Of a DNA stretch of 39,948 bases, positions 4,060-39,948 are shown one piece after another. A program made the position numbers and the translations under genes. The stretch comes from Escherichia phage TM1. The notes under the pieces are model-generated. The model had not been told where the DNA came from and did not search any database. It saw only the letters and a list, made by a program, of their open reading frames with translations. The stretch lies in the sequence record OM908436.1; one strand, 5' to 3'. Positions within the stretch are counted from its first letter, which is position 1. Each line of letters opens with the position of its first letter.

Positions 4060-4404
4060 CTAGCAGTCCTCCTCTTCGTCTGCCTCTTCAGCCTCAAACC
4101 ATACCACATCACGGCTATTAGACACGTCGTTATAAAGTGCCTCATAGATACGAGCTTGCAGTATACGCGTCACATCCTTGGTCTCAGGCATCAGCCCAGA
4201 GTCTTCGAACTCATGGTCAATACCATCAGCAGCCATCACCGTAAAAATCTCGTGGTAATAGTGCGGTACCTGACCATCTACTACCTCATGCAGCGCATCA
4301 TGATAATCATCGCCTTCAGCTATTTCGTCGCACTGAATACGCTCATTGAACAGCTCAACGGTTGCAGCCAGCAGCTCATAGTATGCGTTAGCGTTACGTT
4401 CCAT
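4060..4404 (-). CDS. ocr: Ocr-like anti-restriction DNA-mimic protein (T7 gp0.3 homolog)
   Basis: 114 aa, acidic; [50 protein letters not shown] aligns with T7 Ocr [50 protein letters not shown]; acidic C-terminal tail. Confidence 0.88.
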
Positions 4405-27417: not shown

Positions 27418-27510
27418 TCAGTGTTTAGGTCGGTTGTTCGACCCGAACCACTTGTACATGCAGTAAAGGGCCAGAAGTCCGGCCCAGTAGATTACATGGA
27501 TGGTGTCCAT
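27418..27510 (-). CDS. Small hydrophobic peptide (30 aa) at the gene 6.3 position, overlapping the gp6 end
   Basis: MDTIHVIYWAGLLALYCMYKWFGSNNRPKH; hand-translated, below the ORF-track cutoff. Confidence 0.3.
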   Translation of the reverse strand: MDTIHVIYWAGLLALYCMYKWFGSNNRPKH

Positions 27511-28361
27511 AGGATGACCTCCTTGGACTTAGGGTCATAGTCGGAGGCTCGACAAATACGAGCGACCTGAGCTTGGACCAGAAGTTCCTCCTCGGTCATG
27601 CCCGCCTTAGCAGCCAGTGTAACCATGCAGTCCCACAGCGTCATGTCTTCACGCTTCGGATACTTCTTCCACTCAGTCTTAATCTGGCCTTTGTTCTTAC
27701 CAGTCTTAAGCTCACGGCTCTCCTGCACGAAGTAGTACGGCTCGTCAAGGAACGCACGAGTGGTGTCCTCACCCATCCCCGGAATGCCACCGTAGCCATC
27801 TGTAATGTCACCCTTGATGGTCTGCTCCATGTGCCAGTAGTCTGCCTCAGCAGTCGTATGACTCAGGATTTCACCAGTTGTTAACCAGAAGAACTCACAG
27901 TTCGGGATGGTCTTGAAGTCCTTATCACAGGACACTAGCACCGCATGGTCGCATCCGACAATCTGAGGTCTGGTCCCGATGATACCCATACAGTCATCAC
28001 CCTCAAGCGTAGGACGCAGGAAGCTGTTGAACCGTGGGTCAGCCATCACTTCGGCTACGAACTTCTTGTAACCTACAGGCTTGCGAGAACCTTTACGGTT
28101 GGCCTTATAGGTAGGCAGAACGTCCTTACGCCAGTTATTATCGTCAGTGAAGCACATCACAATCTTAGCGTCTTTCCACGCCTTACGCTTCTTAACGATT
28201 TCAGCGATGGTGTTCTCAAGAATACGACGAGCCTTCTCGTGGTCGCAGATAAGGGTCCAGATGTCATCGCCCCAGTCTGTCTCGTCCTCGGCAGCAGCCA
28301 TAGAAGAGAAGACCAGATAGTCGCCATCCAGAACCAGAGCTATCTTCTTCTCAGAACCCAT
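27492..28361 (-). CDS. gp6: 5-prime to 3-prime exonuclease (T7 gp6-like)
   Basis: 289 aa; DGDYLVF, CDHEKARRILE, PTLEGDDCMG, CDKDFKTIPNC and WHMEQTIKGDITDGYGGI match T7 gp6. Confidence 0.88.
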   Translation of the reverse strand: MGSEKKIALVLDGDYLVFSSMAAAEDETDWGDDIWTLICDHEKARRILENTIAEIVKKRKAWKDAKIVMCFTDDNNWRKDVLPTYKANRKGSRKPVGYKKFVAEVMADPRFNSFLRPTLEGDDCMGIIGTRPQIVGCDHAVLVSCDKDFKTIPNCEFFWLTTGEILSHTTAEADYWHMEQTIKGDITDGYGGIPGMGEDTTRAFLDEPYYFVQESRELKTGKNKGQIKTEWKKYPKREDMTLWDCMVTLAAKAGMTEEELLVQAQVARICRASDYDPKSKEVILWTPSM

Positions 28362-28800
28362 CGTCCAGACCTCCTGTAGCCATAGCGACCGTAGCTGGCA
28401 TCAAGGAAACTTTAAGCTCCTCAATACGTTCTAGAGTCACCTCAGGCTTCAGCCATTTATTTGCGAACTCATGGGCCATGTCGTTGTCCTCTGAGTTTAG
28501 GTGTGACATCAGGCTCCAGAAGTTGGAAGACATTTCGGTCTCCTTCTCAACCGGGCGATATACGTCCCAGTCAATTACCTCTGAGCCGTAGCTGTCATTC
28601 CACATACCACTGGCTACGATGGTCAGGCCGATGAACGGACGCCACTCATAAGCCTCAGAAGGAGACTCGGCGTAGGACTCAACGTCCTTCTCAGTCAGGA
28701 TGTATGACCAATATGCGCAGAACTCAGCGTACTTGCGGTGCACCTTCTCGCACCTACCCATTTCAAGGACCAGCTCTTTCAGACTTTCAGGTATCTTCAT
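28351..28800 (-). CDS. Acidic hypothetical protein (about 149 aa from MKIPESL) at the locus where T7 has gp5.9
   Basis: Start taken at the internal Met at 28798-28800, which overlaps the gp5.7 stop (ATGA); no similarity to T7 gp5.9 as recalled. Confidence 0.55.
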   Translation of the reverse strand: MKIPESLKELVLEMGRCEKVHRKYAEFCAYWSYILTEKDVESYAESPSEAYEWRPFIGLTIVASGMWNDSYGSEVIDWDVYRPVEKETEMSSNFWSLMSHLNSEDNDMAHEFANKWLKPEVTLERIEELKVSLMPATVAMATGGLDDGF

Positions 28801-29006
28801 AGACAGCCTCCATGTTGGTTCAGGAACTTGGTGCCAGCAGCGGTAATCTCCCACGCACCGTTGTTACGCCCATCAATAGACAGGCAGCTTAGATGTCCAC
28901 GACTCGCAGCCTCAGCCACAAGTGCAGCGTTGTTGCGCACATAGTTGGACTGGAAGGTCTTCGGGCAGGACTTAAGGGCCGCTAGGACCCGTAAGTATTC
29001 ACTCAT
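28797..29006 (-). CDS. gp5.7: T7 gp5.7-like protein
   Basis: 69 aa; MSEYLRVLAALKSCPKTFQSNYVRNNAALVAEAASRGHLSCL is near-identical to T7 gp5.7 MSDYLKVLQAIKSCPKTFQSNYVRNNASLVAEAASRGHISCL. Confidence 0.85.
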   Translation of the reverse strand: MSEYLRVLAALKSCPKTFQSNYVRNNAALVAEAASRGHLSCLSIDGRNNGAWEITAAGTKFLNQHGGCL

Positions 29007-29302: not shown

Positions 29303-29463
29303 TAGCCTTCTCCTTCTTCTTCGTTATGCTCTTTCAGAATTTCATGAATGTCTCGACTGCATGAACCACTGAGGTTTGGATTATAACCAGACTCCTCGTG
29401 TCCACACCACCAAGCTGACCGCATCAGGTCTTTGACCTCCTGCTCGCTATAAGTTTTAGCCAT
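29302..29463 (-). CDS. Small acidic protein (53 aa) between the HNH gene and gp5.5
   Basis: MAKTYSEQEVKDLMRSAWWCGHEESGYNPNLSGSCSRDIHEILKEHNEEEGEG; start overlaps the HNH stop and stop overlaps the gp5.5 start; hand-translated. Confidence 0.4.
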   Translation of the reverse strand: MAKTYSEQEVKDLMRSAWWCGHEESGYNPNLSGSCSRDIHEILKEHNEEEGEG

Positions 29464-29744
29464 TAGTGACACTCCTTCTTAACAAGTTTGCGCTCACGGT
29501 TCGTCTTAATGACGTGTTCGCGCTTTGGAATACACTGTAGGTGCTCTATGTTGCAGCACCCACGGTTCAAGCACAAATGGTCTATCTCGTAGCCATCTGG
29601 TATAGGTCCGCGCTTCTGCTCCCACACCCATCGGTGGAACATGAAGGCGAACTTGTTGCCCTTCCTGTAGCTTCCCATGGGGTACCTGAAGTACCCATCT
29701 TGGTTCCTCTTGTGGGACACGCAGACGATACATCCGGTAGGCAT
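29463..29744 (-). CDS. HNH endonuclease downstream of DNA polymerase (start uncertain; the longer ORF-track version would overlap the gp5 end)
   Basis: FHRWVWEQKRGPIPDGYEIDHLCLNRGCCNIEHLQCIPKREH is a typical HNH motif; Cys pair near the N-terminus. Confidence 0.65.
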   Translation of the reverse strand: MPTGCIVCVSHKRNQDGYFRYPMGSYRKGNKFAFMFHRWVWEQKRGPIPDGYEIDHLCLNRGCCNIEHLQCIPKREHVIKTNRERKLVKKECH

Positions 29745-29775
29745 GGTGTGGAAGCGTAGGGTCTTGGTTCGAGGG

Positions 29776-31947
29776 TCAGTGACACTCTTTCCACGTTGGC
29801 CCAATCTTACCCTCTGTATCAAGCTCACACTTGAAGTTATAAAAACGTCCGACCTCACGCATTGCTTCTTGTGCAATACGGACGACTTCTTCGGCAATCT
29901 CCTGAGTACGACACGCAATCTGCAATTCATCGTGAATCCAAGCCATTAGAGCAAAGTCACCATCCCAGCCATTACCGTAGCCAGCTTCCTCAAGTTTCTT
30001 CTCCGTCAGCACCATCCAGTGCTTACAGACAACCGCACCATCTCCTTGAAGTAGAGCGTTAAGTGCTGAGTGTGGCGACCGGATGTGAATGCGGCGACCA
30101 TCAAGTCCACGCAGCCAACGGCGTTTCCACTTAACGATGTTCTCTCCGTCCACCCACTTAGAGTCTGAGATTAACGTATTACTCACAGCTTCCCTGAGGT
30201 CCTTGATGGCTGGTGTACCCTCAATGAATTTCTTCATGAGAGCCGAACCTTCCTTCTTACCACCGCCGACTATCAGTCCAATCTTAGCGGCCCCTGCACC
30301 ATACAGGAACGCATAGATGAACGTCTTAGCGTTGTTACGGAAAGCCTCATGATCGTGGTTCGACTTATCGCGTGGGACGTTAGGTGCTAACCCAGCGTTG
30401 ACTGCGTTGGCCCAGTGGATGTCACCTTCGACCACAGTCTTCGCATAATCTCCACCATCAAACGGAGCTGCTCGGTTCCCCAGACAACGAAGCTCAAGAC
30501 CTGAAGCATCCACACCAACTTGAATCCAAGGGTCTGGCTTACCATCAGTCTTGTTCCAAGCTGCACCGAAAGCACCACGGCAAGTCTCACCATACGGAGC
30601 ACCGTTAGCAGGGACCTGAGCCATGTTTGGTGAACTATGAGTCGCACGTCCGGTTACTGCCCCGCATGGGTTGATTGAACCGTGCATACGTCCGTCTGGA
30701 CCTACAAGTTTCAACCATGCGTTCTTACCTTCAGCCGCCTGACCGATGCGCTTCTGGACTACCAGATACTCACGAACTAGCTCTACGCAAGCCTGAGCCT
30801 CTGCGTCTGGTAACTTAACGTGTTCTAACGTCTCGTCATCGACTACAGGTTTCCCGGTGTCAGTGAAGTCTACAGGCTCCCATCCACGCTCCATCAAGAC
30901 TTTCGCTAAGTGGTCTCCGCTTCCCGGATTAAACTCAACGTAAGTGATAGGTGTGAAAGGTGCTCCCTCCATCGTGTCTCGCGTATCGCGCTCACAAGGT
31001 TCAAGACCTAAGCGTTGAGCTTTGTTCTTCGGCTTCTTAAAGATGCCACCTATTTTAGGATACACGACTCGCGGATACTTCGGAAGGTCCTTGCCTGTCC
31101 GGGGGTGCTTGAAGAACTCCTTGCCTCCCTTTGGTGCGTACCAGCTACCGAAAGTCGAACGCAGCTTGTCCAGCAGCTCTGCACGTTTGACGGTGAGTTC
31201 ACGATATAAGCCTTCGACCATCTCTGTGTTCATCGGATAGCCGTTACGTTCCATCTTCGCACAGGTCCACGCAGCATCATGTTCCAGACGCAACGCATAA
31301 ATCTGGTCGAAAGCGAACTGTTCAGACTGGAAGTAATACTTGTCAGTCAGGAACTTCTTGAACAATGCCAGTGTGACCACAACGTCTTGAACGTTATAGT
31401 CCAGCATCTCCTGAGACGGGAACAACCATTCGTCCCCAGCCTTATATTCGATACCTTCAGCCTTGCACTTGGCAACGTAATCGTGTTTGTATTCACCTTT
31501 CATCTCACCAAGACGATAGCCCCAAGCCTCAAGAGACTGACGTCCCATCATCTTAGGTGGCAGACGGCCAGATTTCACCGCTCCCATGTCTGAGAACTTA
31601 ATGTTTGGATACATCAAGCGACCCAGCACCAAGGTATCAATCATCTTGTGTTTCGGGAAGTTAAAGCGCTTCCCAAAGTACAGACGTTTCAGCTTGTCAA
31701 TAGCCGGGACGTCGTAGTTGATACCGTTGTGGAATACCAGCATACCATAAGGTGATGCGGCAATCTCTTCCACTTTATGAACATACTCTTTGAAGCCACC
31801 GACGATACCGACCATCGGAGCTACCCCATACTTAAGGGTCTCATTCGACTCGGCGTTAATCAGGACCCCACAGTGAAACTGGGAGACTGTATCAAGGAGA
31901 CCGTTGGTCTCGATGTCAGAACCCCAGATACTCTTAAGGTCAAACAT
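29776..31947 (-). CDS. gp5: DNA polymerase (T7 gp5-like, family A, with 3-prime to 5-prime exonuclease domain); start at MFDLKSIW with SD GGAGGA
   Basis: DIETNGLL (exo motif), EAWGYRLGEMKGEYK, DYNVQDVVVT, GVDASGLELRCL, NAKTFIYAFLYGAG, WIHDELQ and the C-terminal H all align with T7 gp5; the ORF-track start at 31983 has no RBS. Confidence 0.92.
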   Translation of the reverse strand: MFDLKSIWGSDIETNGLLDTVSQFHCGVLINAESNETLKYGVAPMVGIVGGFKEYVHKVEEIAASPYGMLVFHNGINYDVPAIDKLKRLYFGKRFNFPKHKMIDTLVLGRLMYPNIKFSDMGAVKSGRLPPKMMGRQSLEAWGYRLGEMKGEYKHDYVAKCKAEGIEYKAGDEWLFPSQEMLDYNVQDVVVTLALFKKFLTDKYYFQSEQFAFDQIYALRLEHDAAWTCAKMERNGYPMNTEMVEGLYRELTVKRAELLDKLRSTFGSWYAPKGGKEFFKHPRTGKDLPKYPRVVYPKIGGIFKKPKNKAQRLGLEPCERDTRDTMEGAPFTPITYVEFNPGSGDHLAKVLMERGWEPVDFTDTGKPVVDDETLEHVKLPDAEAQACVELVREYLVVQKRIGQAAEGKNAWLKLVGPDGRMHGSINPCGAVTGRATHSSPNMAQVPANGAPYGETCRGAFGAAWNKTDGKPDPWIQVGVDASGLELRCLGNRAAPFDGGDYAKTVVEGDIHWANAVNAGLAPNVPRDKSNHDHEAFRNNAKTFIYAFLYGAGAAKIGLIVGGGKKEGSALMKKFIEGTPAIKDLREAVSNTLISDSKWVDGENIVKWKRRWLRGLDGRRIHIRSPHSALNALLQGDGAVVCKHWMVLTEKKLEEAGYGNGWDGDFALMAWIHDELQIACRTQEIAEEVVRIAQEAMREVGRFYNFKCELDTEGKIGPTWKECH

Positions 31948-31971
31948 GGTTAATCCTCCGTTTAGTCTAAT

Positions 31972-32008
31972 CATAAAGGCCACTCGCTGTGAATGACCTT
32001 GAGTCTAG
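31972..32008 (-). promoter_or_regulatory. Conserved RNA hairpin upstream of the DNA polymerase gene (candidate RNase III site, R4.7-like)
   Basis: CATAAAGGCCACT-N8-ATGACCTTGAGTCTA; compensatory changes relative to the copies at 8668 and 38797 preserve the stem. Confidence 0.55.
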
Positions 32009-39631: not shown

Positions 39632-39948
39632 TTAAGCGAATGCAAAGTCTGAAGACAAGATGTCTTCGATATTCAGTTTACCTTTCTTCGGAAGCTCAGG
39701 CAATTTGTCGCGCTGGCTCTCGTGGAGCTGGTATTCAAACTGCTCGTAGAAGTCAAGCAGCACATCGTTATCGCGGTAGGTCTCTACCATCGTCTCACGG
39801 ACGCCACGGAACAGATACTCAGCGTCAGCCGGGATGGTCCCGAAGCTATCGTGAATCACTGCGAATGACATCACGCCATATTTGCGGTGCGTGTGGACTA
39901 CAGTCTTGCGGAGGTGGCTACCATCTTGTGAGTGGACGAAGTTCGGGC
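39632..39948 (-). CDS. gp1: T7-type RNA polymerase, C-terminal part (stop codon 39632-39634); same gene as 1-2492
   Basis: HDSFGTIPADAEYLFRGVRETMVETY...LHESQRDKLPELPKKGKLNIEDILSSDFAFA matches the T7 RNAP C-terminus HDSFGTIPADAANLFKAVRETMVDTY...LRDILESDFAFA. Confidence 0.92.
   Translation of the reverse strand, partial: PNFVHSQDGSHLRKTVVHTHRKYGVMSFAVIHDSFGTIPADAEYLFRGVRETMVETYRDNDVLLDFYEQFEYQLHESQRDKLPELPKKGKLNIEDILSSDFAFA
39822..39948. repeat. Exact duplicate of window bases 1-127 (assembly overlap)
   Basis: See feature at 1-127. Confidence 0.8.

Follow-up and report, generated by a model that had tools for sequence, protein, structure and literature searches.

A two-module acidic accessory protein encoded in a variable slot before the exonuclease gene of Escherichia phage TM1

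The 39,948-nucleotide (nt) sequence of Escherichia phage TM1 (record OM908436.1), called the window below and meaning the whole stretch analysed, carries all of its genes on the minus strand and has its closest relatives among Kayfunavirus genomes. Between its genes 5.7 and 6 lies an open reading frame (ORF) at 28351-28800 encoding a protein of 149 amino acids (aa) followed by a stop codon, identical (100%) to a protein recorded for Escherichia phage TM1 as a hypothetical protein. A preliminary description of the window had pointed to this ORF as an acidic protein standing where T7 carries gene 5.9. In T7 and T3, gp5.9 is an inhibitor of RecBCD, and inhibition of MukBEF by it has also been reported. 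The locus is built as described. Gene 5.7 forms the left flank of the slot (28797-29006; 69 aa, 77% identical to T7 gp5.7; phrog_1334, E 2e-38), gene 6, encoding the 5'-3' exonuclease, forms the right flank (27492-28361; 289 aa, 51% identical to T7 gp6; phrog_107, E 2e-79; PF02739), and gp5.5 is likewise conserved (PF11247, E 4e-20), placing the ORF inside the 5.5-5.7-6 operon. The protein contains 28 Asp and Glu residues against 14 Lys and Arg (19% Asp+Glu), with a net charge of -14 and a pI of 4.53, the fifth lowest among the 51 inferred genes of the window.

The overlap with both neighbours that the preliminary description had noted is equally evident. The start codon (ATG, 28800-28798) overlaps the stop codon of gene 5.7 as ATGA and is preceded, after a 6-nt spacer, by a GGAGG Shine-Dalgarno sequence read at 28807-28811 within the 3' end of gene 5.7, while an alternative GTG start giving a 167-aa reading falls within gp5.7 and lacks a comparable Shine-Dalgarno. 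At the other end, the final 11 nt of the ORF are shared with gene 6 (ATG, 28361-28359), whose own Shine-Dalgarno sequence AGGAGG (28370-28375) is embedded in the tail codons of the ORF. Comparison with five relatives at 87-93% protein identity gave dN/dS values of 0.05-0.31 over codons 1-128 (Nei-Gojobori) and of 0.2-2.1 over the last 21 codons, the latter from very few sites. Against its five closest relatives (loci L023-L027) the TM1 copy also shows the substitutions R16 (Glu in the others), V20, C28 (Tyr), Y30 (Ser), I34 (Thr), I76 (Asn) and L129 (Pro). Because of the low dN/dS, the GGAGG-preceded and ATGA-coupled start and the existence of homologues in 156 phage records, the ORF is a genuine gene under purifying selection, beyond a chance reading frame.

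Searching with the segment spanning gene 5.7, the ORF and gene 6 (megablast) matched 224 records, 54 of which carry the ORF. Among 55 evenly sampled records with both flanks matched, classed by match length together with five fetched loci, the slot was found in at least six states (loci L005-L010): empty (17 records, span 503 nt), TM1 type (15 records, 945-951 nt), ST63 type (8 records, 828 nt), Vec13 type (7 records, 771-774 nt), ECG4 type (6 records, 718-721 nt) and ZH4 type (2 records, 729 nt). The alternative genes, at least four in number, are unrelated to the TM1 gene or mosaic, and encode proteins of 92 aa (Vec13 type), 110 aa with a pI of 4.3 (ST63 type), 72 aa with a pI of 8.9 (ECG4 type) and 78 aa with a pI of 4.3 (ZH4 type). 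Phages K1F, CR44b and Dev2 have the empty slot, gene 5.7 joining gene 6 directly. Both junctions are exact. On the left (28797-28811), the sequence ...GGAGGCTGTCTATGA, which comprises the end of gene 5.7, the Shine-Dalgarno and the ATG, is common to all variants, the GGAGG being kept throughout; in K1F this same Shine-Dalgarno and ATG start gene 6 itself. On the right (28348-28375), homology returns at AAGAAGATAGCTC, about codon 4 of gene 6. Each cassette thus supplies its own Shine-Dalgarno, ATG and first three or four codons of gene 6. The slot is a hot spot of presence/absence and allele swapping, as expected of accessory or counter-defence genes, and from these sequences the ORF is best read as a genuine, presumably translated and non-essential accessory gene, one allele of a swap-in slot.

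Two of the alternative loci deserve comment in their own right. The 110-aa acidic protein of the ST63 cassette (L007:507-839, Salmonella phage ST63) matches phrog_2294 (E 9e-9), labelled "ribonucleotide reductase", a label that on so small a protein probably reflects neighbourhood and not function; together with the position of the Suspvirus homologues of the TM1 protein between nrdD and nrdG, this match suggests an accessory-gene pool shared by T7-like phages and Ounavirinae. In the 56-kb record of Enterobacter phage 01_vB_Eclo_IJM (L010), the ECG4-type gene and gene 6 are split into several short annotated ORFs, suggesting frameshift errors in assembly.

The protein belongs to PHROG 4382, a family of unassigned function, by a profile match (E 6.1e-44) that places residues 1-128 on positions 6-127 of 130, and thus spans essentially the whole profile; its homologues have the same invariant columns. 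By tblastn, 156 GenBank phage records encode a homologue, labelled "hypothetical protein" each time, in three groups: Kayfunavirus (80-95% identity), Klebsiella Przondovirus (~42% identity over residues 2-127, in the 5.7/6 slot) and Ounavirinae myoviruses of the Suspvirus and Mooglevirus type (~30% identity, 28-32% for the Suspvirus type). A profile search of 1.84 billion representative proteins returned only 34 relatives, all small (roughly 70-160 aa), the most distant homologues being ~20-30% identical to the TM1 protein. Searches of Pfam and NCBIfam gave zero matches, and the family motifs were found in neither of the supplements of two anti-defence/accessory-gene studies. The preliminary description had allowed that the protein might prove to be widespread and already characterised; it is widespread, and no paper characterising the PHROG 4382 family or phage TM1 was found in the searchable literature. 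The family is best described as already catalogued, as a PHROG and as GenBank hypothetical proteins, the predicted fold being new and the portable module newly noticed. Two copies, 92% and 85% identical and from genomes of ~40 kb, carry the names "Staphylococcus phage MBBL139" (OR786095.1) and "Enterococcus phage EFA-1" (MT350292.1), host names that hardly suit Kayfunavirus-like phages and are probably due to contamination or mislabelling.

An AlphaFold2 (AF2) monomer model built from an 18-sequence alignment predicts a confident globular fold over residues 1-129 with the topology H-EE-HH-EE-HH-E (H, helix; E, strand), the confidence score (pLDDT) by 10-residue block being ~79-95 over this range and at least 84 up to residue 120. 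Within this fold we distinguish a core domain, residues 1-86 (28543-28800; pLDDT ~86-95), predicted to consist of a beta-hairpin, two acidic helices and a second beta-hairpin, and marked by the motifs E-HRKY-x-F and GMW-D-x-x-G-x-E. Columns E13, G15, H21, R22, F27, G65, W67, D69 and G72 are invariant in an alignment of homologues (alignment A1), and the acidic helices (residues 37-56) remain acidic across the family. No solved structure was found as a structural neighbour of the core domain. A profile of this domain (core.hmm) scores the ORF at 102 bits in the window. The domain also exists without the following module in proteins of ~113 aa, whose C-terminus is of the VPEKVIPAHT type.

Residues 87-116 (28453-28542) form a predicted helix-loop-helix, hereafter module M, with helices at 89-98 and 103-116, reading F-W-S-L-M-S-H-L-N-S-E-D-N-D-M-A-H-E-F in TM1 (FWSLMSHLNSEDNDMAHEF). 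It is followed by residues 117-128 (28417-28452), the last strand of the fold (modelled at residues 120-125), in which segment the PHROG 4382 profile and the Klebsiella-phage homologues terminate. Residues 129-149 and the stop codon (28351-28416) make up a disordered tail (pLDDT below 50 for 130-149) that coincides with the translation-initiation region of gene 6: the codons ACA GGA GGT CTG GAC GAT GGG TTC TGA (T G G L D D G F stop) hold both the Shine-Dalgarno sequence and the ATG of the exonuclease gene. The tail is missing from Przondovirus, Suspvirus and other homologues, and the Vec13 cassette, whose protein is otherwise unrelated, carries the same 45-nt tail. Its conservation is therefore explained by the gene 6 ribosome-binding signals, which argues against a function of the tail itself, for example as an acidic tail like that of single-stranded DNA-binding protein (SSB). 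A replisome-binding C-terminus of the SSB or gp2.5 kind (...GGLDDGF) was accordingly rejected as the main explanation, the last residue moreover varying between F, C and FE.

Module M recurs outside the family. The TM1 protein matches phrog_6163 (E 4e-4; residues 90-119 on positions 3-32 of 84), possessing the N-terminal module of PHROG 6163 with the rest of that family unmatched, and in hhalign its residues 90-114 align with residues 6-30 of the 78-aa ZH4 protein (probability 94%, E 1e-7); a module-M profile (M.hmm) scores it at 61.7 bits. The consensus of 31 distinct copies is F-x-x-L-[ML]-S-H-L-N-[SAG]-E-E-N-x-M-A-x-E-F, with synonymous differences at nearly every codon, so that the constraint acts on the peptide. 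Several proteins headed by this module pass the Pfam family Phage_T7_Gp5_9 (PF25708; gathering score 24.5 bits) with 41-63 bits, namely those of ZH4, Pistou, Y2 (gp58) and loci L060-62, L071 and L074, and judging from the profile comparisons TM1 residues 87-116 are homologous to the N-terminal module of these proteins. A scan of viral contigs for module M, for which the single ZH4 protein matched nothing and a two-sequence alignment was needed, extended the set of partners to at least five arrangements: module M followed by a gp5.9-like GVDNW domain, by a GGTDGY domain, by a GGDGS domain or by the TM1 core domain (a 163-aa protein at L073; E 1e-9 with the whole-family model, ~3e-9 with the core-only model), and the TM1 core domain followed by module M. 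In seven metagenomic viral contigs (L065, L067-L070, L072, L075) the module heads GGTDGY...DPESFGGMDSGPE or GGDGS...GCDGDGFHY domains, and these types lie upstream of gp6-type exonuclease genes wherever the flank is long enough.

In Erwinia phage Y2 (gp58 and gp59) and at locus L062, a gene combining module M with the gp5.9-like domain is followed by an overlapping gene for a core domain. An hhalign comparison of Y2 gp59 with alignment A1, which is of the EHRKY type, gave no similarity, the relation being seen only with a broader family model. Fusion of core and module M in both orders, together with this adjacency, is a classic sign of modules acting together. The ZH4 cassette also matches phrog_4790 and phrog_6234, labelled "host RecBCD nuclease inhibitor"; we did not use these labels as evidence of function. 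The Pistou copy bears the label "host recBCD nuclease inhibitor", citing the annotation of Pectobacterium phage PP101, a label presumably assigned by gene position.

In T7-like phages of several genera, some of them only ~20-30% identical, the family gene lies directly before, and overlaps, a gp6-type exonuclease gene. A second clade, seen on metagenomic contigs of 4-93 kb, several of them 84-93 kb long, shows the opposite order: the family gene follows the exonuclease gene (phrog_107, E 1e-34 to 2e-48), with an overlap of 4-8 nt. At three loci an HNH gene is all that separates the two, and at two loci two small genes intervene. Genes for module-M proteins built in other ways are also found 0-1 kb upstream of exonuclease genes of the gp6 type. 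As read from fusions, profiles and gene order, the core domain and module M share an evolutionary link with one another, with proteins of the Pfam gp5.9 family and with gp6-type exonuclease genes.

The preliminary description had seen no similarity to gp5.9 itself, and the protein is indeed unrelated to it both in sequence and in predicted fold. Direct homology to T7 gp5.9 was rejected, since BLASTP gave an E value of 0.18, hhalign a probability of 0.6%, and PF25708 no match at E<=10 with either the whole protein or residues 87-149 alone; the AF2 model is globular. Module M is not detectable in T7 gp5.9, its profile score there being beaten or matched by 231 of 2000 shuffles. No gp5.9 gene lies elsewhere in the window (the best tblastn hit had E 0.06 on the wrong strand), where profiles of the ZH4-type domain, module M and the core domain match the present ORF only. 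Gp5.9 proper was found in 187 records, nearly all at least 80% identical to that of T7; it is confined to T7-, T3- and Yersinia-type phages among the 40 records listed, and Kayfunavirus was not found in the organism tally of the 187. Kayfunavirus and Przondovirus, including K1-capsule phages and Klebsiella therapy candidates, appear to be without gp5.9 proper.

RecBCD inhibitors adjoin phage exonuclease or recombination genes, as in gam-bet-exo of lambda and 5.9-6 of T7, and the blocking of RecBCD by gp5.9 and Gam is central to the conflict between phage and host, with retrons and other systems guarding this point. We tentatively propose, by analogy, that the TM1 protein binds, with no enzymatic activity of its own, a host DNA-end complex such as RecBCD, the latter being the best guess because of these two gene arrangements and the shared module M. 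The protein would work by stoichiometric binding in the DNA-end/exonuclease pathway and not by catalysis, as suggested by the lack of a family-wide set of catalytic residues: the HRKY and WSD motifs are replaced by KH[SD]-x-C and S/Y-x-NGW in divergent members. Module M would serve as a portable docking element common to the Pfam gp5.9-domain proteins, and the acidic alpha/beta core (~100 residues) would occlude the DNA-binding or active surface of a host DNA-end-processing complex, with RecBCD the leading candidate, so that linear phage DNA and the intermediates produced by gp6 would be protected. It is also conceivable, if unlikely, that module M is a portable docking peptide with which unrelated phages bring different effectors to one conserved hub, be it a host DNA-end complex such as RecBCD or the phage exonuclease, where the TM1 core acts as an inhibitor of new fold complementary to gp5.9 mimicry. 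The effectors may then be the gp5.9-like coiled coil, the TM1 core and two further domains, and the TM1 core might shut off another activity of the hub, or a guard system responding to RecBCD inhibition.

The preliminary description had put the protein forward as a candidate functional replacement of gp5.9 or a different anti-defence protein, a suggestion that is partly borne out: indirect support comes from the allele swapping in the slot, from the homology of module M to the N-terminus of proteins above the PF25708 threshold, and from core domains that other phages encode beside that module or fused with it. Several observations weigh against a host DNA-end complex as the target. The TM1 protein has no gp5.9 domain, and the shared module might serve oligomerisation or binding of the phage exonuclease instead. 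The core-domain gene of Y2 coexists with a gp5.9-like gene, which suggests a partner or complement and not a replacement, and in any case nothing simply redundant with gp5.9; K1F-type phages carry no gene in the slot at all. The acidity is moderate (19% Asp+Glu against 29%, with a computed pI of 4.08, for gp5.9) and the model globular where gp5.9 is a coiled coil. At 149 aa and with a globular monomer model, the protein departs from the gp5.9-type build of a short (~50-85 aa) coiled-coil dimer. Membership of the ZH4-type proteins in PF25708 is a profile match, in a family on which T7 gp5.9 itself scores only 27.8 bits. Adjacency to the exonuclease gene has exceptions: no exonuclease gene lies within 3 kb of the Suspvirus/Mooglevirus homologue, which is flanked by nrdD and nrdG, divergent members stand beside NAD-salvage or DNA-polymerase genes (at one locus after NAPRTase), the Proteus-phage type has its exonuclease 3.6 kb away, and two other loci depart from it as well; the number of independent lineages behind the adjacency may be as low as two or three. 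RecBCD, or any other binding partner, is for the TM1 protein a proposal drawn from its sequence context.

The charge comparison brought a further protein to light, encoded at 4060-4404 on the minus strand in the early region (114 aa, pI 4.05, net charge -25, 27% Asp+Glu). Its charge and early position suggest a candidate Ocr (gp0.3)-like DNA mimic of TM1, far more extreme in composition than the 149-aa protein.

Of the alternatives, the one that fares best, although we regard it as doubtful, holds that the TM1 protein serves counter-defence or host takeover with a target other than a DNA-end nuclease, such as a defence system standing guard over RecBCD or detecting intermediates of phage replication, and that gene 6 adjacency is merely a convenient insertion hot spot. 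The hypervariable slot, polymorphic for presence and absence and occupied by at least five alternative small proteins, speaks for such a role. Family members and other cassette types also lie in Ounavirinae accessory regions (nrd, PseT) that carry HNH insertions as well, and the occurrence of a core gene alongside a gp5.9-like gene in Y2 implies a non-redundant role. In line with this alternative, gp5.9 has been reported to trigger the guard retron Ec48 (PMC9836394). Another alternative makes the protein a partner or regulator of the phage gp6-type 5'-3' exonuclease. The core, module M or both would then bind gp6 and tune or direct what it does, perhaps holding it back on phage DNA or bringing further domains to it. 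Overlap and translational coupling with gene 6 speak for this reading, as do the core-domain genes that adjoin phrog_107 exonuclease genes, before or after them depending on the phage group, and the module-M proteins of four other architectures encoded upstream of such genes. We nevertheless consider this unlikely: K1F-type phages lack the cassette despite 88-97% nucleotide identity over the matched 5.7/gene 6 flanks, and unrelated cassettes fill the slot in other phages, so that gp6 does not need the TM1 protein and the latter is no obligatory partner. In addition, the homologues of Suspvirus, Mooglevirus and loci L056, L057 and L059 are distant from exonuclease genes, as is the module-M protein of Pistou.

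An enzyme or small-molecule-binding accessory of nucleotide metabolism is less plausible still, and we hold it to be improbable. The place of the Suspvirus/Mooglevirus homologues between nrdD and nrdG, one homologue that follows NAPRTase and PRPP-synthetase genes, and the invariance of E13, H21, R22, W67 and D69 within alignment A1 would fit it; these residues do not hold in the wider family, where the motif replacements given above occur, there is no Pfam or NCBIfam match and no enzyme-like structural neighbour, and nrd genes are absent from T7-like phages. That no functional protein is made, the frame being kept open solely by the gene 6 translation signals, would account for the last 20 codons, which the ribosome-binding site explains and where constraint is relaxed, and is otherwise hardly credible given the core dN/dS, the confident AF2 fold, homologues across genera and families down to ~20-30% identity, and the expression of gene 6 without a cassette in K1F.

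If the proposed binder of a host DNA-end complex does act in the same pathway as gp5.9, the TM1-type protein would be a new structural solution to the same problem and would account for differences between some close relatives in their sensitivity to host nucleases or defence systems. With cassette boundaries this exact, alleles could be swapped cleanly between otherwise near-identical phages, and the conserved 25-30-residue module M is a concrete peptide for a search for binding partners. Should the protein be unrelated to nucleases, the finding shrinks to another uncharacterised accessory gene in a variable slot.

Elsewhere in the window, an HNH homing endonuclease gene (29463-29930, minus strand; PF13392, E 2e-19) begins inside the 3' end of the DNA polymerase ORF (29776-31983); it is seemingly missing in many close relatives, whose matches cover only ~85% of a 3-kb query, and K1F instead has such an HNH gene interrupting its gene 5. 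The RNA polymerase gene is divided between the ends of the record (1-2540 and 39632-39948), which repeat ~100 nt and both encode ...LRKTVVHTHRKYGVMSFAVIHDSFGTIPADA. These ends thus seem to come from a circularly permuted assembly with an overlap and not to be the natural ends of the genome.

Set beside known systems, the TM1 protein resembles T7 gp5.9 (PF25708, PHROG 9014) in gene position, both genes lying in the 5.7/6 interval and running into the start of gene 6, and in being the small, acidic, non-essential product of a translationally coupled gene. It has three times the length of gp5.9, and its AF2 monomer is a globular alpha/beta fold, whereas gp5.9 forms a parallel coiled-coil dimer that an N-terminal beta-sheet braces (PMC9836394). 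The short segment shared with the Pfam family, module M, is found in PF25708-matching proteins other than T7 gp5.9. With lambda Gam the likeness is one of genomic logic only, a small acidic inhibitor gene beside a phage exonuclease, the TM1 protein having no Pfam Gam match and no structural similarity to Gam. The PHROG 4382 members of Klebsiella Przondovirus (KMI1_21) and Escherichia phage phiSUSP1 (AVU07_agp068) are true homologues with the same core fold (Foldseek against BFVD, E 2e-13 to 2e-10); they are without the 20-residue tail of TM1, and in the Suspvirus copies, lying between nrdD and nrdG, module M is degenerate. Y2 gp59 and the 163-aa protein of L073 share the family core domain, in its KHS-x-C subtype, and its link to module M (broader family model, E 2.5e-6 to ~1e-9), with the module order split or reversed relative to TM1. 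Finally, the proteins of the ZH4, CLB_P1, Erwinia phage Pistou and Y2 gp58 type (PHROG 6163) carry an N-terminal module M of the form F-x-x-L-M-S-H-L-N-S-E-E-N-x-M-A-E-E-F, and in Kayfunavirus ZH4 and the T7-like locus L060 they fill the identical 5.7/6 slot; in them module M precedes a gp5.9-like GVDNW domain, while in TM1 an 86-residue core precedes module M and the GVDNW domain is absent.

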